The position numbers were made by a program, and so were the translations under genes. Below the pieces are notes generated by a model, which had not been told where the DNA came from, searched no databases, and saw only the letters and a program-made list of their open reading frames with translations. A DNA stretch of 64,000 bases, taken from assembly GCA_039918235.1 (NCBI GenBank), contig JBDSHZ010000043.1, forward strand, positions 22,891 to 86,890, written 5' to 3'. Below are positions 16,806-27,328 of the stretch, piece by piece. This stretch comes from Pelobium sp. (GTDB taxonomy: Bacteria > Bacteroidota > Bacteroidia > Sphingobacteriales > Sphingobacteriaceae). Positions within the stretch are counted from its first letter, which is position 1. Every line of letters begins with the position of its first letter.

Positions 16806-17672
16806 ATGAAAATTAAATCATTAGTACTATTGGCCGGTTTGGCGATGTTGGTGGCGTCTTGCTCGGCACCTCGTATGCTTAGAGAAGCGCAAGCTGAAAA
16901 CACGAGATTAGACAGCCTTTATAGAGATTTGCAAAATCAATTACTGGCCTGTGAAAATGCCCGTAAGAGTAGCAGTTCTGATTATGAGATGAGGATTAAA
17001 AATTTGAATGAGCAACTATCAAGCGTGAAAGCTAATAATGGACAGATGGTTGATCAGTTAAAAGATTTATCTGTAATCACAGGAAAACAAGCAGAGAGCA
17101 TCAACAAATCTTTAGAAAACATTGGTGCTAAAGACAACTATATTATCAATCTTCAATCTGCAATTGCTAGAAAGGATTCTTTAAATATGGCCTTGGTCAT
17201 GAATCTAAAAGGAGCCATTGGAAATATGGATGACAAGGATATCAATATTAAAGTTGATAAAGGTGTTGTTTACATTGACATTTCAGACAAACTTTTATTC
17301 AAAAGTGGAAGTTATGATGTAAATGATGGTGCAAAGGGTGTTTTAGGAAAAGTAGCTAAAGTATTAATGAACCAACCAGAGATTGAGTTTATGGTGGAAG
17401 GACATACAGATAATGTTCCTCTTAAAGGAAACGGAGTGTTAATGGATAATTGGGATTTAAGTGTAAAAAGAGCTACATCTGTTGTTAGAATATTGCAGAA
17501 CCAATACAATATCCCAGCAGCTAAAATGACTGCAGCAGGTAGAGGAGAATATGTTCCCGTAAGTAGTAACGATACCGTAGAAGGTAAAGCAGCCAATAGA
17601 AGAACAAGAATTGTGATTTTACCGCAATTAGATCAGTTCTTTAAACTGTTAGAAACTCCTCAAAGAAAGTAA
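16806..17672 (+). CDS. OmpA/MotB-like peptidoglycan-binding lipoprotein
   Basis: Lipobox VASC, coiled coil, then VEGHTD, NWDLSVKRA and NRRTRIVI. Confidence 0.85.
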   Translation: MKIKSLVLLAGLAMLVASCSAPRMLREAQAENTRLDSLYRDLQNQLLACENARKSSSSDYEMRIKNLNEQLSSVKANNGQMVDQLKDLSVITGKQAESINKSLENIGAKDNYIINLQSAIARKDSLNMALVMNLKGAIGNMDDKDINIKVDKGVVYIDISDKLLFKSGSYDVNDGAKGVLGKVAKVLMNQPEIEFMVEGHTDNVPLKGNGVLMDNWDLSVKRATSVVRILQNQYNIPAAKMTAAGRGEYVPVSSNDTVEGKAANRRTRIVILPQLDQFFKLLETPQRK

Positions 17673-17688
17673 CATATTAAAATATTGT

Positions 17689-17721
17689 AAAAAAAGCTAG
17701 ATGATGAGTCTGGCTTTTTTT
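17689..17721. terminator. Bidirectional intrinsic terminator
   Basis: AAAAAAAGCTAGA-tgatgag-TCTGGCTTTTTTT between convergent genes. Confidence 0.7.
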
Positions 17722-17723
17722 GT

Positions 17724-18563
17724 TTACAACGTGTTCTCATTCAAAGTAGGATTCATACTTGCATTTACCTGATAGGTATAGATATGATCATCTTTATCAA
17801 TTTCCACTATTCGATATCCCATATAGCTAGTTCCCCAATTGCCTCCAAAATGCGCATCAAAAAAATGCGGTAATTTGTTGGTATATCTTACACCATCAAT
17901 ATTATGGTCATGCCCATGAAAAGTTGCTTTAACATTTGGGTATTCATGTAAAATTTTAATGGTATCAGGGCAATTGGCGTAAAAGGTGTCTTCTGGCAAC
18001 CATTGATGGGGCGGAATATGCAGAACAACAAAAATGGTTTTCTTATCCTTATAAAGCTCTAAACTATCCTTTAAGAATTTATTATCTGGGCAGAGGTATT
18101 CTCCTTTAATGTTTGAAGTATTGCCCATCACAAACCCAATATTTCCCTTTTCAAAAATGTAATTATAACCATAGCCAAAAACTTTTGTCCATAAATCAGT
18201 ATCTGCATGGTCATGGTTTCCCGGAAGGGTATAATAAGGGAATTTAAATCTTTTAAAAAATTTTTGATCTACGGAAGCCAATAAATCAGGACGGTCATGA
18301 ACAATATCTCCGTTGATAATGGCAAAATCCAGATGGTTTTTTTCATGATCTTGATTTAACCATTTTAACAAATCTTCAAACTGTTGGTCGCTGTTTACAT
18401 CTTTTTGTCCGTAATGCCCATCTGAAGCAAGCGCAAAACGAAGTTTTAACTTTTTAGCTCTTTTATTAGTTTGAGAATCATGAGCAAAAAGATTAATTGA
18501 AGGCAGTAAGCTAATGGTTGCGCCTGCAATTCCGGTTTTGATAAAGTTTCTTCTGTTGCTCAT
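17724..18563 (-). CDS. Tat-exported calcineurin-like metallophosphoesterase
   Basis: SNRRNFIK twin-arginine signal; ASDGH, NGDIV, PGNHD, LHIPP and FHGHDH motifs. Confidence 0.88.
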   Translation of the reverse strand: MSNRRNFIKTGIAGATISLLPSINLFAHDSQTNKRAKKLKLRFALASDGHYGQKDVNSDQQFEDLLKWLNQDHEKNHLDFAIINGDIVHDRPDLLASVDQKFFKRFKFPYYTLPGNHDHADTDLWTKVFGYGYNYIFEKGNIGFVMGNTSNIKGEYLCPDNKFLKDSLELYKDKKTIFVVLHIPPHQWLPEDTFYANCPDTIKILHEYPNVKATFHGHDHNIDGVRYTNKLPHFFDAHFGGNWGTSYMGYRIVEIDKDDHIYTYQVNASMNPTLNENTL

Positions 18564-18738
18564 AATTTCAATTTATTTTAAAACAAGATGAGCCGTCATA
18601 ATTGACAGCTCACCAAATTAACTAAACCTAAACAATTTTATATGAAACATCCTCTTCGGATTTTTAATACTCACAAAAGTACCATGGAATTATTAGCAGA
18701 GTATTAATTTTTTATGAAGTTAAAAACCTCCTTTAACC

Positions 18739-19680
18739 TTAATGACATTCCCACACTGCATCTACAAACCAGCTCTTTTCATCTAAAAAATGATGAACAG
18801 GAGCAAAGCCTGTTTTTAATGCTAAATCATTAGTTTCCTGAAGGCTATATTTCTGAGAAATCTCCATAAAAACAGGTTCATTTTCTTCAAATTTGATAAA
18901 ATCGGCCTCGCCAATTCTCACCGTCTGCTCTTTTAAACTGATTAAATAACTTTTGCAGGATCCAGTAAGGGGATCGTACATTGGATAATGTTCAAAAGCA
19001 TCTAAATTAAAATCTGCCTCTAAAGTTTTATTCATTCTCTTTAAAAGATTGAGGTTGAAATCTCTGGTGAAACCAGCTTTATCATTGTAAGCAGCCCTTA
19101 TGGTTTTAGGGTTTTTCTTAAGATCAATGCCCATTAAAACCAAGTCGGTTTTGGTTAAGTTGGCTCTTAATTTTTTACAGAAATCTTCCGCTTCTGAGAT
19201 GGGCATATTTCCAATATTAGCGCCCAAAAAAAGCACAACTTTTCTTCGGGAAGAAAATGAATTTGCTTTTTCTAACATTTCGAAATATTCTCCATTAAAA
19301 CCTTTAATATTTAAACCAGGGATTTCTTTCGGTAATTCTTGTTCCAGGTGATGGATTACATTACTTGAAATATCAATAGGGAAATAATTAAAATCTACGC
19401 CTTCCTTAACCAACTGCTTTAAAAGATGTGAAGATTTGGTAGCGTCACCAGCACCCAGCTCTACTAAGTCAAACGAATTAAATCCATTTTTTAAAGCTTT
19501 AGCTATCTCAACGGTTTGCTGCGTAAAAATTTCCATTTCACAGTCAGTGAGATAATATTCCTCAGAAGCCATAATCTGTTGGAAGATTTTATCGCCGCTC
19601 TCGTCATAAAAATACTTAGCATGTAAATGTTTTGGTGTTGCACTTAGGCCTTCCAAAACCTCTTGTAAAAATTTGTTCAT
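18739..19680 (-). CDS. egtD: L-histidine N-alpha-methyltransferase (hercynine synthase)
   Basis: PKHLHAKYFYD, EEYYLTDCE, VELGAGDATK, FLGANIGN, AYND and FNLNLLKRMN. Likely start is MNKFLQ at 19680 (ORF track starts at 19710). Confidence 0.92.
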   Translation of the reverse strand: MNKFLQEVLEGLSATPKHLHAKYFYDESGDKIFQQIMASEEYYLTDCEMEIFTQQTVEIAKALKNGFNSFDLVELGAGDATKSSHLLKQLVKEGVDFNYFPIDISSNVIHHLEQELPKEIPGLNIKGFNGEYFEMLEKANSFSSRRKVVLFLGANIGNMPISEAEDFCKKLRANLTKTDLVLMGIDLKKNPKTIRAAYNDKAGFTRDFNLNLLKRMNKTLEADFNLDAFEHYPMYDPLTGSCKSYLISLKEQTVRIGEADFIKFEENEPVFMEISQKYSLQETNDLALKTGFAPVHHFLDEKSWFVDAVWECH

Positions 19681-19687
19681 AGATAGG

Positions 19688-20863
19688 TTATTTTGCAAGC
19701 CTGACACCATTATAATGCCAACGCAATTGTGGGTGAAAAAAATTGCGGTAGCTTATTCTTTTATGATTTGGAGAGGTAGCAATTGAAGCCCCTCTCAGTA
19801 CTTTTTGGTTTACCATAAATTTGCCGTTATATTCCCCTATGGCACCAGGGGCTTTTGAGAAGCCAGGATAAGGCAAATAAGCACTTTCTGTCCATTCCCA
19901 CAATTGGCCCCAATTAAATTGACGGGCAGCTACTTCCCATTCAAATTCTGTTGGCAAACGCATTCCTTTCCAAGATGCAAATGCCGAAGCCTCATAATAG
20001 CTGATATGCGTAACCGGCTCATCCAATCTCAGCTCGTTTAATCCTGAAAGATTATAACGAAACCATTGATCACCCAGTTTATGCCAATACAATGGAGCAT
20101 TTATACCGTTGGTTTTTACCCAATCCCAAGCTTCTGCATGCCAATGCCTAAAATCACCATAAACGTTATCGTTTATAAATTCTAAATATTCTCCATTGCT
20201 TACCAAGGCAGTAGAAATTTCGAAATCATTTAAATAAACCTGATGTTTTCCCAATTCGTTATCAAAACAGAATTCCTCACCTTGATGTCCAATCTGATAT
20301 AAACCAGCTTCAATATTTAGCCATTCTGATTTTTCAGCCTTTAAGTTTTGTTCAATATTTTCATCAGCGTAAGCAGGAAAAAGAGGGTTGTGGCCTAAAA
20401 TATATTTAATATCGTAACATAATAATTCCTGATGCTGTTGTTCATGATTTAAGCCTAAAATCAATATTTCTTTTATTTCTTCATTAGGTTCTCGGCATAA
20501 AAAACGTTCCATTGCTTCATCTACATAAGCTCTATATTTATAAACATCAACAACGGTAGGCCTACTTAAATTACCTCTATCTGTTCTAATGACTCTGGCA
20601 CCAACAGTTTCATAGTAGCTATTGAAAACATAATTGTAATTAGGGTCAAACTCTTGATAAGCCGTAAAATATGGTTTAAGAATCATGGTTTCAAAAAACC
20701 AAGTGGTATGGCCTAGATGCCATTTTGGAGGGCTAACATCAGCGATGGGTTGTACTACATAATCTTCAGTCTGCAGCGGAATACAAATTTCTTCTGAGTG
20801 TTTTCTTACAGATTGATAGTGAGATAGTATATTCATTAATAAGGATTTTAATTTTTTTAACAA
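19688..20863 (-). CDS. egtB: Ergothioneine sulfoxide synthase EgtB (type II-like)
   Basis: DinB-like SPPKWHLGHTTWFFE, FNSYY loop, NHEQQHQE iron-binding His motif and FGE-sulfatase-like C-terminus (RLPTEFEWE, LRGAS, YRNFF). Alternative start at 20836. Confidence 0.93.
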   Translation of the reverse strand: MLKKLKSLLMNILSHYQSVRKHSEEICIPLQTEDYVVQPIADVSPPKWHLGHTTWFFETMILKPYFTAYQEFDPNYNYVFNSYYETVGARVIRTDRGNLSRPTVVDVYKYRAYVDEAMERFLCREPNEEIKEILILGLNHEQQHQELLCYDIKYILGHNPLFPAYADENIEQNLKAEKSEWLNIEAGLYQIGHQGEEFCFDNELGKHQVYLNDFEISTALVSNGEYLEFINDNVYGDFRHWHAEAWDWVKTNGINAPLYWHKLGDQWFRYNLSGLNELRLDEPVTHISYYEASAFASWKGMRLPTEFEWEVAARQFNWGQLWEWTESAYLPYPGFSKAPGAIGEYNGKFMVNQKVLRGASIATSPNHKRISYRNFFHPQLRWHYNGVRLAK

Positions 20864-20917
20864 ACATAATGCCTCATAAGTTTGAGAAATTTTAGAAAAA
20901 AATTAAGGTATCGTATT

Positions 20918-22483
20918 TTATTGGTCTAAATATTCTTTCAAATTACTCACACTTTTAATTGCCAATTTCTTTGCTTGTGCTTTTCGCATCATTAAAGCAT
21001 AAGTGTTGTTAAAACCAATGGGTTTTAGCCATTTAATTTTATAGTTCTTTTGAAACGCAGTTTGTACGTACCGAAAAACTTTTTCTTTGTCGCTCATCAT
21101 GGTAGCAAATAGCTCAGGTTGCTGTGGAAGAATCACCAACAGACCGGTTCCTGTATATTCTGGATAAAAATCTATCTGCTGATTGGTTAAAGCATCAAAA
21201 CAGATTTTTGTGCCGCCTAAACCAGTTTTGGTTTCTACCTGTAAATCCGAATTTCCTAAAATGAGCATTTTATAGATCTGTGCCAAAATATACTGCTCCC
21301 CAAATATTTTAGAACCAATTCTGATGGTTTCTCCGTTTCCGTTTTTTGGAGATTTATATAATTTCTTTTCCATCAGGAAATCTTTAGCCACTTGCTCTGG
21401 CAATTGATGGAGGTAATCAACTTTGTAATTTAAATTGGTCATGGTGCTATCATCAATCACGCCTGAAAGCTGGTTTAAAATTGATTCCAATTCTGGATGC
21501 TTGTTTAAAACTGCTTGATTAATAATTGGCGCTGCAAAGTAAGTAGGGAAGATATGTTTGTTATCTTCAAGGGTAATGAGTCCGAAAGCTTTTAACCTCC
21601 CATCTGTACTGTAGCCACTAATCACGTCCAGCTTTTTTTCAAAAGCGGCTTTGTACATGACCGCATCACTGATCACTACTGTTCTTATTTTTAAACCATA
21701 AATTTTTTTGAGTCCCAAATCTCCATCTTGCCGGCCCATAAATTCGGGTGTGAAACCAGCCAACATTTTTCCTTCAATTGTAGTGGGTAAAAAATAAAAG
21801 GAAGAAAGTAGGAAGAGTAAAACAGGGAGAAATAATAGATAGTTTTTAGTTTTTCTCCATCTTATTTTTTGAACTCGGGACAGTAAAAAATCAAAAATAA
21901 TGGCTAACAAAGCTGCGGGTATGGCACCAGCTAAAATCATATTGGAGTTATTCAGCGCTATTCCACCAAAAATAAATTCTCCTAAACCTCCGGCAGCAAT
22001 GTAAGCCGCAAGTGTTGCTACTCCCACATTAATCACGGTTGCTGTTCTTATGCCTGCCATAATGATTGGGAATGCCAAAGGCAATTCTACTTTTTTTAGA
22101 ATTTGGGCCCGGTTCATACCCATTGCTTTTGCAGCTTCTAAAATTTGGGGCTCAATATTTTTAATTCCGGTATAAGTGTTTCTAATAATGGGTAACAGCG
22201 CATATAAAAATAAAGCAACAATTGCAGGTTTAACACCGATACCCAGAACAGGAATCATTACGCCTAGCAGTGCAATACTTGGAATGGTTTGTAAAATACC
22301 GGCAAAACCTAAAATTGGTCCAGCTAATTTAGCGCTCCTGCTAATCCAGATGCCCAATGGCAACGCAACTAAAATGGCAATAAATAAAGAAATAAAAGTT
22401 AAGCCGATATGCTGTAAGGTCTGATGTAGCAACTGATCAGACTCTTGACTAATAAAATGAAAGAAACTGTTATTTGTCTCCAT
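20918..22483 (-). CDS. Betaine-class ABC transporter, permease fused to substrate-binding domain (OpuBB/EgtU-like)
   Basis: ProW-like permease (LQTIPSIAL, LEAAKAMGM EAA motif, GGLGEFI) plus binding-domain motifs TPEF..R.DG, YSTDGR, GSK..GEQYIL, YPEYTGT and GFNNTYAL. Confidence 0.9.
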   Translation of the reverse strand: METNNSFFHFISQESDQLLHQTLQHIGLTFISLFIAILVALPLGIWISRSAKLAGPILGFAGILQTIPSIALLGVMIPVLGIGVKPAIVALFLYALLPIIRNTYTGIKNIEPQILEAAKAMGMNRAQILKKVELPLAFPIIMAGIRTATVINVGVATLAAYIAAGGLGEFIFGGIALNNSNMILAGAIPAALLAIIFDFLLSRVQKIRWRKTKNYLLFLPVLLFLLSSFYFLPTTIEGKMLAGFTPEFMGRQDGDLGLKKIYGLKIRTVVISDAVMYKAAFEKKLDVISGYSTDGRLKAFGLITLEDNKHIFPTYFAAPIINQAVLNKHPELESILNQLSGVIDDSTMTNLNYKVDYLHQLPEQVAKDFLMEKKLYKSPKNGNGETIRIGSKIFGEQYILAQIYKMLILGNSDLQVETKTGLGGTKICFDALTNQQIDFYPEYTGTGLLVILPQQPELFATMMSDKEKVFRYVQTAFQKNYKIKWLKPIGFNNTYALMMRKAQAKKLAIKSVSNLKEYLDQ

Positions 22484-23426
22484 TTCTTTCTTTTTTATAG
22501 TTTTCCAAAGCCTGCATTAAAGATGCTGACGTAATGTTTTTTACTTCACCATTGTATTCAAAAGCAGTTGACCCTGTTTCCGCTAATTGCTCTAACGTAT
22601 CCCAAACATTGAGATTTTTGATGGGAGAAGTTTCTAAATGGTTGTTAACGTGATTATTTAAAAATCCCCATAATTTCTCTAATTGGATAGATTTCAAGGA
22701 AAGCTGTAATTGATGACCTTTAAAAAAGTCGCGGACCATTTTGTTGACAGGTTTTTGCATCAAATCTCTAGGTTCGCCAATCTGAAGTACCTCGCCTTCA
22801 CTCATTAAACAAATTCGGTCTCCAAGTTCAAATGCTTCGTTAATATCATGGGTAACCATCACTATTGTTTTGCTTTGCAGTTCATCCAAAGACAAAAATT
22901 CTTGTTTAATGCTGTTTCTAGTAATGGGATCTAAAGCACCTAAAGGTTCATCCATCAATAATATTGGAGGATTAGCGGATAAAGCCCGGGCTAGACCTAT
23001 TCTTTGTTGTTGCCCGCCACTTAATTCATTAGGAAATTTATTTTTAAGCGTTAAAGGAAGATGAAGCTTTTCCATGAGCTCATCTGTTCTTTTGGTAATT
23101 TTATCTGGTTTCCATTTCAATAATTGAGGAACAATTTCAATATTTTGTGCAATGTTATAATGGGGGAAAAGGCCATGGTTTTGCATGACATAGCCAATCC
23201 CAAGCCTAAGCTCTTCAGGTTGAATGGCAGCACTATCTTTCCCATTGATAAAAATACTTCCATGATCAGGATTGATAAGCCTATTGATCATTTTTAAAGT
23301 GGTGGTTTTACCGCAGCCACTAGTGCCCAATAAGATTAAAGTCTCGCCTTTTTCAACAGTAAAGCTCAAAGCTTTTACGGCTTTTGTTTTTCCAAAATCT
23401 TTGCTGATCTGTTTGACTTCAATCAT
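22470..23426 (-). CDS. Betaine-class ABC transporter ATP-binding subunit (OpuBA/EgtV-like)
   Basis: GTSGCGKTT, MINRLI, IGYVMQ, LSGGQQQRIG and LLMDEPLGALDPITR; 14-nt overlap with the permease gene. Confidence 0.92.
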   Translation of the reverse strand: MIEVKQISKDFGKTKAVKALSFTVEKGETLILLGTSGCGKTTTLKMINRLINPDHGSIFINGKDSAAIQPEELRLGIGYVMQNHGLFPHYNIAQNIEIVPQLLKWKPDKITKRTDELMEKLHLPLTLKNKFPNELSGGQQQRIGLARALSANPPILLMDEPLGALDPITRNSIKQEFLSLDELQSKTIVMVTHDINEAFELGDRICLMSEGEVLQIGEPRDLMQKPVNKMVRDFFKGHQLQLSLKSIQLEKLWGFLNNHVNNHLETSPIKNLNVWDTLEQLAETGSTAFEYNGEVKNITSASLMQALENYKKERNGDK

Positions 23427-23478
23427 TGATTAATGATGTTTTAGAGTTATTTAAATATAAAAAATCTAAAAGGAAGTT

Positions 23479-24861
23479 CTAATCTAAAGACATAAAAAGA
23501 TTGTTGAGTGATTCGGCATATAAAGGATGTGCGAAAATATTATACCGGATTTGTTCATAGGTAATATTACCCAACATTGCGATTTGTAAAATAGACATGA
23601 TTTCTCCGCCTTCTGCTCCAATCACTGTTGCGCCTAAAATCATTTTTGTTTCGGGATCTACAATAGCTTTCATAAATCCATTTGTTTCCCCAGTTTCTAA
23701 GGCTCTGGCTACGTATTTCATGGGTAGTTTAGCCACTTTATAATTGATGCCTTTTTCTTTTGCCTCTTTTTCAGATATCCCTACACGCCCTAATTGAGGA
23801 TCGGTGAACATACAATAGGGAAGTGCTCTTCCTTTAGTAGTCATGTCTCCATTTTGCAAAATATTCTTACTCACAATCACAAAATCATTGTAAGAAATAT
23901 GTGTAAAAGCTGGTCCTCCTTTTACATCGCCTAAGGCATAAATATTTTTCGCAGAAGTTTTTAGTTTGTCATCTACTTTAACATATCCTTTCTCATCGGT
24001 ATCTACTCCGGCAAAAGATAAACGGAGATTTTTTGTTTGTGGAGCTCTTCCAGAAGCTATTAAAATATGGCTACAGCTAAATGTGTGGTTTTTTCCATTG
24101 ATCTCTGCTGTTACTGTTTTTTCCTTTTTCCCTTCAACTCTTATCACATCGGCATTGGTGTGAATTTCAATACCTTCCTGCTTAAAAACATCGGATATGG
24201 AGGTACATACATCTTCATCCTCATGAGGTAATAAAGTTTTTGATTTTTCTAAGATGGTAACTTTGGAGCCAAACCTGCTCATCATTTGCCCAAATTCCAA
24301 AGCAATATAACCGCCACCAACAATAACCAAATGTTTGGGTATCTCTTCTAAATCTAAAAGTGTTGTAGAAGTTAAATATTCAGTCTCCTTAATGCCCTCT
24401 ATTTCTGGAATATAGGGAGTACAGCCAGTATTAATGAAAATCAGTTCTCCCTTAATTTCTGTCTCTTCTTGTCCGTTTTTTATGAGCATTGTTTCATTGT
24501 CTATAAATGAAGCTTCACCCATTATTATATGCAGATTAGGAGTTTTTTCTAATCCTTTGATTGCGCCATTTCTAAAAGATTCTACAATGTTATTTTTTAA
24601 CTTAAGAGCGGTATCATAATTGATTTTTAAATGATCAGTTTCTACACCCCAATTTTTTCCGTTTCTTGCTAAATGAGCTACTCTTGCAGAAAAAATCATT
24701 GTTTTTGTGGGCGAACAGCCATCGTTTATACAGGTTCCACCAATTATTCTCTTTTCAATAATTGCTACGCTTTTTCCAGATGAAGCTAATTTTTTTGCCA
24801 GAGGAATTCCTGCTTGTCCGGCACCAATAACAATGGCATCAAATTTTTTAGGATTTTTCAA
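23479..24861 (-). CDS. Class I pyridine nucleotide-disulfide reductase, RclA/Har-like ('mercuric reductase-like')
   Basis: IGAGQAG, redox CxxxxC in GGTCINDGCSPTK, VGGGYIALEFG, LGDV and C-terminal HPLYAESLNNLF without a terminal Cys-Cys pair. Confidence 0.85.
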   Translation of the reverse strand: MKNPKKFDAIVIGAGQAGIPLAKKLASSGKSVAIIEKRIIGGTCINDGCSPTKTMIFSARVAHLARNGKNWGVETDHLKINYDTALKLKNNIVESFRNGAIKGLEKTPNLHIIMGEASFIDNETMLIKNGQEETEIKGELIFINTGCTPYIPEIEGIKETEYLTSTTLLDLEEIPKHLVIVGGGYIALEFGQMMSRFGSKVTILEKSKTLLPHEDEDVCTSISDVFKQEGIEIHTNADVIRVEGKKEKTVTAEINGKNHTFSCSHILIASGRAPQTKNLRLSFAGVDTDEKGYVKVDDKLKTSAKNIYALGDVKGGPAFTHISYNDFVIVSKNILQNGDMTTKGRALPYCMFTDPQLGRVGISEKEAKEKGINYKVAKLPMKYVARALETGETNGFMKAIVDPETKMILGATVIGAEGGEIMSILQIAMLGNITYEQIRYNIFAHPLYAESLNNLFMSLD

Positions 24862-25132
24862 CTTTTACTCCTTTCCAAAACGCCACATAATCTTTAATCT
24901 CTTTAGCGGCATCTTTAGGTTGAGGATAGAACCAAGCGACTTCCTTATTTTCATCTCCATTTACATCAATATTGTAGTAAGAAGCTTCCCCTTTCCAAGG
25001 ACAGGAAGTATGTTTATTGGAGGGTGTAAAAAAGGTTTTATTGATAGAAGAAGGCGGGAAATAATGATTGTTCTCTATAACAATTGTCTCCTCACTTTCT
25101 GCAATGGTTTTTCCGTTCCAAATGGCTTTCAT
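24848..25132 (-). CDS. DUF427 domain protein
   Basis: AIWNG..IAES, ENNHYFP, TSCPWKGEASYY, AWFYP and YVAFW; 14-nt overlap with the reductase gene. Confidence 0.92.
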   Translation of the reverse strand: MKAIWNGKTIAESEETIVIENNHYFPPSSINKTFFTPSNKHTSCPWKGEASYYNIDVNGDENKEVAWFYPQPKDAAKEIKDYVAFWKGVKVEKS

Positions 25133-25169
25133 AATTTCCTATTTAAGTTTATCTTATTCTATAAACAAT

Positions 25170-25197
25170 AAATGCTCCAAATTGATTTGGAGCATTT
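25170..25197 (-). terminator. Perfect hairpin, likely terminator upstream of the DUF427-egt operon
   Basis: AAATGCTCCAAAT-TG-ATTTGGAGCATTT. Confidence 0.65.
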
Positions 25198-25245
25198 AAA
25201 TTGAGAAATCCGATTTGGATGATCTATTTCATTACTAAATAAATC

Positions 25246-25677
25246 TTACTTAAAAATAGAGGTCACTTCTGTGATTTTCCAGCTTTGGTTTGTTCTTACC
25301 ATGGTAACATAATCTTCTCTAACAAAAGTTGGATAAATCATGCTGATTTTCACCAAACTGTAATTAGTTGTGCTCACCAATGCGCTTGAGGCAAGCTTGC
25401 AGTTTTGTATGATTCCAACATTTGATTTCATGAAAGCCAGCTCTTCATTTTTTCCGTGAGTCATCATTTTTCCGTTTCTCTCCAGGTTAAATTTTACATC
25501 GTTAGAAAGAATATTTGAAAAGTCTTCACTGTATCCAGTTTTGATTTTTTTAATATAGGTTTCTACATTATACTGTAAGCTTTTGTTGTCAATATTTCTT
25601 TCATCTGCTTTAGCGAAAGAAATGCCAGCTACTAAAAAGATAGCGACAAATAAGGTTTTAATTGTTTGAGTTTTCAT
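25246..25677 (-). CDS. Secreted NTF2-like/putative lumazine-binding family protein
   Basis: Signal peptide; C-terminal REDYVTMV...WKITEV pattern typical of NTF2-like folds. Confidence 0.6.
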   Translation of the reverse strand: MKTQTIKTLFVAIFLVAGISFAKADERNIDNKSLQYNVETYIKKIKTGYSEDFSNILSNDVKFNLERNGKMMTHGKNEELAFMKSNVGIIQNCKLASSALVSTTNYSLVKISMIYPTFVREDYVTMVRTNQSWKITEVTSIFK

Positions 25678-25846
25678 GGTTCTTGATTTTAATAATTAAT
25701 AATTTTCTTATATATACAAGACACCACGAAAAGGCAAAACGTTACAGCGTTTATTCGATTTAACAGTTAAATAATGTTAAATTGATATTATTGGAAAAAT
25801 TGAGGTTTTTTTGAGAAAAATAAAGATCATTTACAATGAATTAATA

Positions 25847-27328
25847 TTAATAGCCGATTCTTTTTAAACCGTCTTTTGCTTTTGTTTCTATGCTGTTCTC
25901 ATATTCATGGTTTTTCATAGCAATGGATTGCTTGAAATAACTGGCAGCCCTAGGACGATCATTTTTGTTTTCATAAATGTAACCAATAAAAAGAGCGGCA
26001 TTAGCGGCATAATAGTAAGAGGTTGTTTTGCCTAGGCTCATTGCTTTTTGATAATTAGCAATTGCATCATTGCTTTTTCCAAGTTCATCATAAACCCTTC
26101 CAAATCTGTAATAATATTCAATTTGATCTCTTTGAAGTTTAAAATCAGAAACGGAATTTCCCTGCAATTGGGCCAATGCTTTAGCATAATAACCACCATC
26201 AAAATAAAAACGGGCTTTTAACAAGTCCTTATTTGGCGGGGTATCATTTGCTTCTTTTAATGCCTGTTTGTCCTTTTCATCAATGGTATTTCCTTGGCTT
26301 TTAACCATTTTTAAAAAAGCATGATACCGCGAATCGTCATTTCTGAGATAATAGTAATAGGAAAGTTTGAGGTAAGCATCTTTCACATAATTAATTCCGT
26401 TATATTCTTTTAGGTATTTAATCAGATAAATGTTGGCGTCAGAATCCATACGGTTTAGCTTCGCATTTCCAATTAAATAGTTAATCAATGGAAATTCGCT
26501 ATAATTGCTCCCTTGTGGTCTTTTGGTTAAATAAGAAATGGCAGTATCATTACGTCCGTTTCTCATAGAAATATAACCTTGTAAATAGGCTTTTAGCAGG
26601 CTTTTGTTACTATTAGAAGCCAAGTAAGACATGGTTTTTTGGTAATTATTTTTATTTGGAGCCAAATCTGTTTCTATGTAGCAGAGAAAAAAAACCACTT
26701 CATCTGAATAGAAATTATAAGATGTTTTAGGCAGGCTACTCATTAGGCTTTCTAAGGTATTGATACCTCTGTTTACATTTCCTGTAAAGCCAAAAGTGGA
26801 GGAAAGACTTTTTAAATTTGAAGGAATTGCACCCATAATTACATCAATTAAACCGGCACTTTTCTTATTTGGCAAAAAACCCGGAAATTTCTTCCCGTTT
26901 TCATCTAAAAGATTATCAGCCCTTCTAATATCTAAGGCGGAGGAAAGGAAATCTTGATAGCGGCTTTTTAGCAATCCCCATTGGAGGTTAACCTCTGCTT
27001 GGGCAAAAAGATAATATGGAGAATTTTTATCCTGCTTTTCAAGCAGATTTAACCGACTTGTTTTTAGAGATTTTAACCGCTCATAATCTGCTTTACTTTC
27101 TGAAGTAAGTAGCGTAAAAAAATCAACATAGTTATCTAAAAGAATAGAAATACCATTATTAGGATTTTGAGATTTTTCTCTTTGGATCAGGGTTTTTGCT
27201 TCTGTTAGCCTTAAATCAAAAATGGCTTCATAGGCATTAATGCAATTGGCGTTAAAATCAAAATTGGCTTTAGCAAGATTTATTGTTGTAAAGAATAGAA
27301 AAAGGAGGATAGTTAATTTTTTGATCAT
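25847..27328 (-). CDS. Secreted tetratricopeptide-repeat protein
   Basis: Signal peptide; C-terminal TPR-like helices (YYYRFGRVYDELG...AIANYQKA). Confidence 0.7.
   Translation of the reverse strand: MIKKLTILLFLFFTTINLAKANFDFNANCINAYEAIFDLRLTEAKTLIQREKSQNPNNGISILLDNYVDFFTLLTSESKADYERLKSLKTSRLNLLEKQDKNSPYYLFAQAEVNLQWGLLKSRYQDFLSSALDIRRADNLLDENGKKFPGFLPNKKSAGLIDVIMGAIPSNLKSLSSTFGFTGNVNRGINTLESLMSSLPKTSYNFYSDEVVFFLCYIETDLAPNKNNYQKTMSYLASNSNKSLLKAYLQGYISMRNGRNDTAISYLTKRPQGSNYSEFPLINYLIGNAKLNRMDSDANIYLIKYLKEYNGINYVKDAYLKLSYYYYLRNDDSRYHAFLKMVKSQGNTIDEKDKQALKEANDTPPNKDLLKARFYFDGGYYAKALAQLQGNSVSDFKLQRDQIEYYYRFGRVYDELGKSNDAIANYQKAMSLGKTTSYYYAANAALFIGYIYENKNDRPRAASYFKQSIAMKNHEYENSIETKAKDGLKRIGY

Follow-up and report, generated by a model that had tools for sequence, protein, structure and literature searches.

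Ergothioneine (ET) is a widely studied antioxidant; its role in the bacteria that produce it is poorly defined, and to our knowledge no bacterial enzyme dedicated to keeping it reduced has been recognised. The closest described systems are the two-gene clusters of type II EgtB and EgtD, as in Chloracidobacterium thermophilum, the EgtU/EgtUV importers of Streptococcus pneumoniae, Helicobacter pylori and Listeria monocytogenes (BilE), the disulfide reductases RclA, Har/MerA, glutathione reductase (Gor) and mycothione reductase (Mtr), and the DUF427 proteins of the type represented by PDB 3djm. In this study, a stretch of 64,000 nucleotides from Pelobium sp., a soil bacterium of the Sphingobacteriaceae (assembly GCA_039918235.1, contig JBDSHZ010000043.1, positions 22,891 to 86,890; hereafter the window), was analysed for a six-gene operon that encodes a DUF427 protein, a class-I flavoprotein disulfide reductase (hereafter RED), the ATPase and the permease of a betaine-class ABC importer, EgtB and EgtD. 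We consider it highly probable that this operon is real and that its four modules (DUF427, RED, the importer and egtBD) are functionally coupled to ET.

With reference to these systems, the operon resembles the C. thermophilum-type clusters in the similarity of its EgtB, in the adjacent EgtD and in having no need of EgtA and EgtC, and it differs from them in adding DUF427, RED and a two-gene ABC importer; in the same comparison, no EgtE-type lyase was found in our phylum sample. The importer shares with EgtU/EgtUV the gene architecture and most ligand contacts, but it displays AfProX residues at three positions and a permuted binding domain, and its host makes ET itself, whereas the characterised EgtU hosts do not. 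RED has in common with RclA and the Har/MerA-type enzymes the CxxxxC motif, the His-Glu pair and the lack of both a metal-binding N-terminal domain and a C-terminal cysteine pair, with about 40 % similarity over the full length, while its genomic context consists of ET genes and that of the RclA type of rclBC. It belongs to the same superfamily as Gor and Mtr, with which it may also share the NAD(P)H-dependent upkeep of one specific thiol; unlike Gor and Mtr, which broadly accompany their thiols, RED is optional among ET producers. The DUF427 protein matches its Pfam family over the full length and its fold superposes on that of the 3djm type, but the 93-aa CPWKG form of the Bacteroidota is tied to egtB by fusion, adjacency and co-occurrence, whereas the 3djm-type copies of Rhodobacterales are not adjacent to egt genes.

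Conservation and co-occurrence of the operon

Synteny was assessed in 80 loci carrying a RED orthologue of 56-77 % identity. The order RED-ATPase-permease-EgtB-EgtD was observed in 60 of these loci, from Pelobium, Pedobacter, Mucilaginibacter and Olivibacter, and six more end at contig ends, while DUF427 lies immediately upstream of RED at 33/80 loci. The conservation of RED and DUF427 with egtBD, on which a preliminary description of this locus had made its proposal depend, is thereby borne out. Other arrangements were also noticed. One locus (L015) harbors RED-EgtB-EgtD without the transporter, one genome carries ATPase-permease-EgtB-EgtD (L101) separately from DUF427-RED (L002), in three genomes (G341, G390 and G329) RED adjoins the permease with egtB on another contig, and the orders EgtB-EgtD-DUF427 and DUF427-EgtB-EgtD occur without RED (L105, L108 and L110). 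DUF427, RED, the importer and egtBD were thus found adjacent in every pairwise combination. The closest relatives form an exception: in most genomes of the host's genus, RED is a solitary gene flanked by housekeeping genes, and each of these genomes possesses egtB at another place.

Co-occurrence was investigated by whole-genome searches and Fisher tests in samples of 151 genomes of the family and 301 genomes of the phylum. In the family sample, egtB was present in 39/40 genomes with RED and in 33/111 without it (p 5e-15), in 38/39 with the permease orthologue and 34/112 without it (p 1.5e-14), and in 27/28 with DUF427 and 45/123 without it (p 2e-9); for DUF427 in the phylum sample, the corresponding numbers were 63/68 and 26/233 (p 2e-37). 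RED and egtB lie within 5 kb of each other in 28 of the 40 RED genomes and are unlinked in 11, and the single RED genome without egtB holds the weakest RED match. At the genus level, egtB occurs in 19 of 37 genera, which include all 10 genera with RED (p 2.7e-4); for DUF427, 28 of 30 genera fall among the 48 of 144 that have egtB (p 9e-15). In the genus of the window, RED and egtB are both present in five genomes (unlinked in four of them) and both absent from three, a co-variation of unlinked genes that is hard to explain by hitch-hiking. These data support that the six genes constitute one conserved unit, whose accessory modules each show a dependence on egtB among related genomes. The co-occurrence that had been suggested as a check on the locus therefore holds in one direction, as RED, the permease and DUF427 are nearly confined to genomes with egtB, and fails in the other for RED, which many egtB genomes of the family lack.

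Layout and boundaries of the operon

The preliminary description listed six co-directional genes on the minus strand in the order given above; all six open reading frames (ORFs) were recovered at the coordinates it gave, and profile searches assigned their families (Table 1). Its spacing was correct for the two 14-nt overlaps, between DUF427 and RED (24848-24861), where the RED start codon is TTG, and between the ATPase and the permease (22470-22483), and for the 52-nt gap from RED to the ATPase, while its gaps of 54 and 7 nt hold only with particular start codons. From the permease to EgtB the gap is 54 nt with a TTG start and 81 nt with the ATG at 20836; alignments with EgtB homologues begin only at residue 9-16, and the ATG at 20836 is probably the true start. 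Taken at its longest, the EgtD ORF shares 23 nt with EgtB, and a start at the ATG at 19680 gives the 7-nt gap; this ATG, in agreement with the homologue alignments, is probably the true EgtD start.

A strong hairpin upstream of the operon had also been described and is real. The intergenic DNA folds with -27.3 kcal/mol (z -4.6), 47 nt separate the hairpin from the stop codon of the gene before it (25246-25677), and a conserved motif, AAATCAATTT, occupies the loop and right arm of the hairpin. In six relatives (L001, L005, L007, L008, L010 and L014), analogous but non-homologous terminator hairpins stand at the same position, and because of these unrelated terminators the hairpin is best read as the terminator of the preceding gene, which delimits the operon on its 5' side. 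A regulatory hairpin was ruled out, given its place after the stop of the upstream gene, its T-rich tail and the unrelated terminators found there in relatives. A second hairpin, 125 nt past the egtD stop, forms the 3' boundary, and no strong-stem terminator-like site was found between the six genes. A sigma-70 promoter scan, which is not built for Bacteroidota promoters, returned 35 sites against 30.2 +/- 5.0 in shuffled DNA and hence no excess, and a permissive Rfam scan of 17500-26000 gave two chance-level matches only. Separately, the Mucilaginibacter loci (L019-L079) share a CTTATCTTTAT motif about 20-35 nt 5' of the DUF427 start, which is similar to TAnnTTTG, the -7 promoter element of Bacteroidota; in the window and the three relatives nearest to it, AAATCAATTT takes the place of CTTATCTTTAT upstream of DUF427.

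Table 1. Features of the operon in the window and of related loci discussed in the text
Feature	Position	Strand	Identification
DUF427 protein	24848-25132	minus	PF04248, E 4.6e-34, 116.5 bits (cut-off 22.1)
RED, class-I flavoprotein disulfide reductase, 460 aa	23479-24861	minus	Pyr_redox_2, Pyr_redox, Pyr_redox_dim
ABC ATPase, betaine/proline/choline (ProV) type, 318 aa	22470-23426	minus	PF00005, E 1.5e-36
Permease fused to C-terminal OpuAC betaine-binding domain, 521 aa	20918-22483	minus	Profile search, PDB match
EgtB, type II	19688-20863	minus	TIGR03440, 532 bits (cut-off 360)
EgtD, histidine N-alpha-methyltransferase	18739-19710	minus	PF10017, E 2.4e-96
Upstream terminator-like hairpin	25169-25198	minus	13-bp stem, 4-nt loop, T-rich tail
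Downstream terminator-like hairpin	18587-18614	minus	12-bp stem, 6 G-C pairs, T-rich tail
Divergent EgtD-like gene	L094:16458-17420
Divergent EgtD-like gene	L095:18406-19341
Divergent EgtD-like gene	L097:224-1150
Long DUF427	L112:5224-5742
Long DUF427	L113:5364-5864
Long DUF427	L114:4426-4893
DUF427-EgtB fusion, 477 aa	L107:3953-5386	minus	DUF427 (1-91), full EgtB (94-475)
DUF427 near RED homologue (Zixibacteria)	L220:5314-5586
DUF427 near RED homologue (Ktedonobacteria)	L225:6043-6303
RED homologue with in-frame TAA	G268:C32:61774-63153
Permease orthologue with in-frame TAA	G190:C1:109234-110787

Synthesis genes EgtB and EgtD

EgtB reached only 349 bits with the SenA model, under its cut-off of 420, and finds its best PDB match in C. 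thermophilum EgtB (8qf6/6o6l, E 7e-122), with mycobacterial EgtB at E 6e-30 (4x8b). The tyrosine pair of NSYYE (Tyr93/Tyr94) and the HxxxH histidine iron ligands are retained, and the HLGHT and HEQQHQE segments align; a catalytic role of the EgtB tyrosines was reportedly described by Stampfli and colleagues in 2019. By these features EgtB is assigned as a cysteine-using type II sulfoxide synthase. EgtD scored 322.8 bits with PF10017 (cut-off 23) and 276.8 bits with the TIGR03438 equivalog (cut-off 290.9), it matches EgtD in the PDB with E 4.6e-40, and its IGN and MEIS segments align with IGN and TEVS of PDB 7scf. In the mycobacterial enzyme, the asparagine of the GN motif and the glutamate of the E-x-S motif recognise histidine and hold its imidazole. 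By profile and motif, the products of the two genes are thus predicted to catalyse the initial two reactions towards ET, from histidine to hercynine and from hercynine to hercynyl-cysteine sulfoxide, and with a type II EgtB beside EgtD neither EgtA nor EgtC is needed.

Two further observations concern these families. Several genomes of the window's genus carry egtB without an adjacent egtD; at a distance of about 6-8 kb from egtB, and on the opposite strand to it, they harbor an EgtD-like gene that is divergent (42-45 % identity; Table 1). In the Acidobacteriota genomes G458-G470, reached through loci L197-L211, an EgtB-like sulfoxide-synthase homologue scored about 235 bits, well below the EgtB cut-off, and may represent a distinct enzyme within the class of thio/seleno-imidazole synthases.

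The reductase RED

RED harbors redox cysteines C44/C49 in a CxxxxC motif and the His-Glu pair H445/E450, all conserved in 81 orthologues, and it has neither a C-terminal cysteine pair, as its chain ends in ...NLFMSLD, nor an N-terminal metal-binding domain. Its scores fall under every curated equivalog cut-off, those of Gor and Mtr included: 505.7 bits for NF004992, the best NCBIfam model (cut-off 629), 412.7 for RclA NF040477 (740), 394.6 for the hypothiocyanous acid reductase MerA/Har NF041853 (650), 378.1 for the mercuric reductase MerA TIGR02053 (454.45) and 396 for the dihydrolipoyl dehydrogenase (Lpd) TIGR01350 (408.8). In a tree of 262 sequences, Escherichia coli RclA belongs to a separate clade of 33 sequences with 100 % support, while all egt-linked REDs fall into one Bacteroidota clade with 95 % support, within which the unlinked copies of the host's own genus are nested. 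RED also differs from RclA by an 18-residue insertion past the redox helix and by an extra conserved cysteine in PYCMFTDPQ. RclA (PDB 6kgy, E 2.6e-96) and the Har/MerA-type enzymes are its closest characterised relatives, so that the label 'RclA-like', which was first attached to this gene, conveys a family resemblance and had to be dropped as an identification.

On the cut-offs and the tree, RclA, MerA and Har were ruled out as identities of RED. Lpd was set aside as well, as the score is below its cut-off, the neighbours are ET genes or, for the unlinked copies, tsf and glnS, and no E1/E2 genes lie nearby. By its sequence, RED is thus an intact class-I FAD/NAD(P)H disulfide reductase distinct from RclA, MerA, Har and Lpd, and the glutamate E205 after its second Rossmann strand, a position at which Lpd and RclA also carry glutamate, suggests that it uses NADH. 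In present annotations, the reductase is wrongly labelled as mercuric reductase or dihydrolipoyl dehydrogenase. One RED homologue carries a single in-frame TAA (Table 1), which may reflect a pseudogene or a sequencing error.

The betaine-class importer

The ATPase scored 285.6 bits with the proV model TIGR01186, below the cut-off of 326.6, and the NCBIfam matches of the importer are models of the ProV/ProW/OsmF type. For the permease fusion, the best PDB match is S. pneumoniae EgtUC (E 2.5e-53), and the alignment comes in two swapped pieces, residues 236-377 with EgtUC 135-276 and residues 385-517 with EgtUC 6-134; the binding domain is therefore circularly permuted. In residues 236-521 (window 20918-21790), the half equivalent to the EgtUC C-terminus precedes the N-terminal half, with a short KSPKNGNG linker between them, and the permutation is conserved in 58/58 permease orthologues. 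The pocket residues K392, I393, F394, Y443, F491, N493, Y495, E247, R251 and D253 are invariant in the 58 orthologues. One permease orthologue shows a single in-frame TAA, again a possible pseudogene or sequencing error (Table 1).

The architecture, in which a ProV-type ATPase accompanies a fusion of permease and cluster F-III binding domain, is that of EgtU, and equivalents of the EgtUC contacts K242, I243, T275, T296, N339, Y341, E375, R379, D381 and Y443 are retained. Among them, the carboxylate clamp K242/T296/R379 and the imidazole-binding E375 are present as K392, the T in YTGT, R251 and E247. According to the EgtU paper, the retained contact residues also occur in glycine betaine binders of the AfProX type, and the clamp is therefore not discriminating for EgtU; its authors separate EgtU from AfProX by the three positions G244, F293 and Y337. 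Neither the invariant Gly244, which makes room around the thioimidazole, nor the Tyr-to-Phe switch at F293/Y337 was found in the window importer. The initial statement that EgtUV belongs to the betaine class of this importer is thus right, while the three specificity positions and the order of the binding domain differ from those of EgtU. From profiles and structural matches, we assign the ATPase and the permease fusion to the AfProX/OpuB betaine class of type I ABC importers; the ligand is likely to be a betaine with a carboxylate. Hercynine, being without the sulfur for which G244 makes room, would be an attractive candidate.

The DUF427 protein

The DUF427 protein of the window has 94 aa and a beta-tent fold. 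Twelve residues are invariant across its short and long forms, including Y24, Y52, W67, Y69, F85 and C44 of the CPWKG motif, the last being the single invariant cysteine. Its AF2 model (pLDDT 96.4) superposes on PDB 3djm with a TM score of 0.88, and beyond 3djm a Foldseek search with this model gave only weak matches to yippee and RIG-I C-terminal domains and no enzyme. The beta-tent fold is common to the sulfoxide reductase MsrB, GFA and the CULT domain of cereblon (PMC4287342), and these features fit a protein that binds small molecules and is possibly thiol-active. At locus L107 of genome G219, a 477-aa ORF fuses DUF427 to a full EgtB and is followed by EgtD (Table 1).

Apart from this short form, a long form of 155-172 aa was noticed, with ESVWDYPRPP at the N-terminus and a C-terminal extension GDFYGGWIT...GPFKGGxGTWGW; it stands divergent from an adjacent EgtB-EgtD pair in a different lineage of Bacteroidota. 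Five genomes possess DUF427 without egtB, of which four have only the long form and one, G267, has a short-frame copy as well. In one Zixibacteria genome and one Ktedonobacteria genome, a DUF427 gene lies 2-2.5 kb from the RED homologue with no egt genes nearby, a hint that the DUF427-RED pairing may be older than its link to ET.

Discussion

Our favoured reading, which taken as a whole we rate as evenly balanced, is that the operon is dedicated to ET and would combine its synthesis, its salvage through the importer and its RED-driven reduction. EgtD and the type II EgtB would perform the first two steps of synthesis, and the importer would salvage a carboxylate-bearing histidine betaine, either ET itself or hercynine, which is both the substrate of EgtB and the desulfurised oxidation product of ET. 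RED, driven by NADH and acting alone or via the single-cysteine DUF427 protein, would return oxidised ET to the thione, with the ET disulfide, a mixed disulfide and the sulfenic acid as candidate substrates. ET would then represent a recyclable thiol buffer, analogous to the glutathione reductase and mycothione reductase systems. The role of RED as an ET-directed reductase, considered by itself, is plausible but unproven, and we place it slightly short of an even chance. RclA and Har reduce hypothiocyanous acid (HOSCN), which is a sulfenyl species and in its chemistry resembles ET sulfenic acid. The chemistry of EgtE passes via ET sulfenic acid (PMC4493562), and mammalian TrxR reduces oxidised ET, according to a statement in PMC12922746 that is itself made by citation. 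A more demanding version, in which DUF427 and RED would form a dedicated ET redox couple completed by the hercynine/ET salvage importer, seems doubtful to us. Under it, DUF427 would handle ET or its S-oxidised forms, and RED would regenerate DUF427 or directly reduce the ET disulfide or sulfenate.

Several observations weigh against an operon dedicated to ET in this way. RED is absent from 33/72 egtB genomes of the family and from about 80/89 of the phylum; ET users in general therefore do not need it. A search of the full library recovered about five 50 %-identity clusters near RED before the scores dropped. Relatives of one of these clusters, represented by P0245 (45-51 % identity to RED), come from Acidobacteriota, Chloroflexota, Zixibacteria and Armatimonadota, no egt genes were found within 8 kb of 29 non-Bacteroidota relatives of P0245, and a true EgtB occurs in 3/23 genomes with non-Bacteroidota RED-like proteins. 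Since RED-like proteins outside Bacteroidota show no such tie to egtB, the family had an ancestral role independent of ET, and the RED-ET link is, by its distribution in these genomes, a feature of the Bacteroidota clade. Weak RED homologues in Bacteroidota genomes without egtB were also detected (G267, 46 % by BLASTP; G386, 48 %). The ET disulfide is unstable and, by established chemistry, reducible by other thiols, and the need for a dedicated enzyme is therefore not obvious. With regard to the importer, F394 stands at G244, Y443 at F293 and F491 at Y337, which is the glycine-betaine pattern of AfProX. For DUF427, no egt neighbours were found at 80 Rhodobacterales loci of the 3djm type, so that the link does not extend to the whole family, and solo copies exist in unrelated contexts in Pedobacter and Pontibacter. 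Correction of the co-occurrence counts for phylogeny was limited to the genus-level test. Finally, no C-S lyase is encoded in the operon, and to call the synthesis 'complete' is therefore an overstatement; of the complete ET homeostasis module first proposed, what stands is a conserved egtB-dependent unit.

These observations leave room for other explanations, the most serious being that RED is a general oxidant-defence flavoprotein, such as a hypothiocyanite/hypohalite or Cu(II) reductase, which is co-regulated with ET synthesis, as both would contribute to defence against oxidative stress, and never acts on ET. Its kinship with RclA and the Har/MerA-type enzymes, the occurrence of the wider RED family in other phyla without EgtB and the solitary RED genes among housekeeping genes in several genomes of the host's genus would all agree with this. 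However, an independent RED predicts presence at the background rate in genomes without egtB, whereas nearly every RED genome has egtB and the two are all-or-none within the genus; RED moreover remains beside the betaine importer where egtBD has moved away, and it lies outside the RclA clade and far under the RclA and Har cut-offs. We therefore regard this explanation as unlikely, though not negligible. In the case of the importer, AfProX-type residues at the positions that separate glycine-betaine binders from EgtU, together with its ProV/ProW/OsmF-type model matches, might denote an ordinary glycine betaine/choline osmoprotectant system that has no part in ET biology and came to lie between RED and egtB by an accident of gene order in this lineage. 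Such an accident is very improbable, as all but one of the 39 genomes with the permease orthologue have egtB, the importer remains beside egtBD at the locus from which RED has moved (L101) and beside RED in the genomes where egtBD lies elsewhere (G341, G390 and G329), the carboxylate clamp K392/T/R251 and E247 are retained, and OpuB-type transporters occur in 5-14 % of all EgtB-class neighbourhoods (PMC13674229).

The missing last step of synthesis raises a further alternative. In none of 54 egtB-bearing Bacteroidota genomes did EgtE reach its cut-off, and DUF427, possibly with RED, might complete ET biosynthesis in place of the EgtE step, either by processing hercynyl-cysteine sulfoxide or by reducing ET sulfenic acid that a lyase not yet recognised would set free. 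DUF427 sits at the EgtB N-terminus in the L107 fusion and beside egtBD without RED in L105, L108 and L110, and it combines the fold of the sulfoxide reductase MsrB (PMC4287342) with one invariant cysteine. Against such a step, which we hold to be improbable, DUF427 is absent from 26/89 egtB genomes and RED from most, the solo DUF427 copies and the 80 Rhodobacterales loci are without an egt context, and Foldseek offered no enzyme match for DUF427 beyond 3djm.

In our literature search, no text with the phrase 'ergothioneine reductase' was found, which agrees with the initial statement that no dedicated bacterial ergothioneine reductase has been described, nor was anything relevant found on ET in Sphingobacteriaceae. 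A gene table covering 5 kb around all EgtB-class genes (PMC13674229; 2026, JACS) lists DUF427 in 5.7 %, an OpuB-type ATPase in 13.6 %, the permease in 5.4 % and 'Lpd/PRK06370, pyruvate dehydrogenase E3' in 4.0 % of neighbourhoods; such neighbours were treated there as housekeeping and not pursued, and no functional reading was given. The statistical association has therefore already been published, and the preliminary description of the locus as a candidate for an undescribed system applies to its function: the functional reading of the association of DUF427, RED and the importer with egt genes is unpublished.

In summary, the operon and its relatives single out three egtB-dependent, uncharacterised proteins, namely RED, the 93-aa DUF427 protein and the AfProX-like permuted importer. 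If neither ET reduction nor salvage is their task, the association would signify co-regulated stress defence only. If DUF427 and RED do form an ET redox couple, Bacteroidota would possess an enzymatically recycled ET buffer, comparable to glutathione with glutaredoxin and glutathione reductase and to mycothiol with mycoredoxin and mycothione reductase. Should RED be an ET reductase, or the importer serve ET salvage, bacterial thiol biology would gain a new layer of ET recycling or salvage, DUF427 would receive a function, and ET production strains could be improved.

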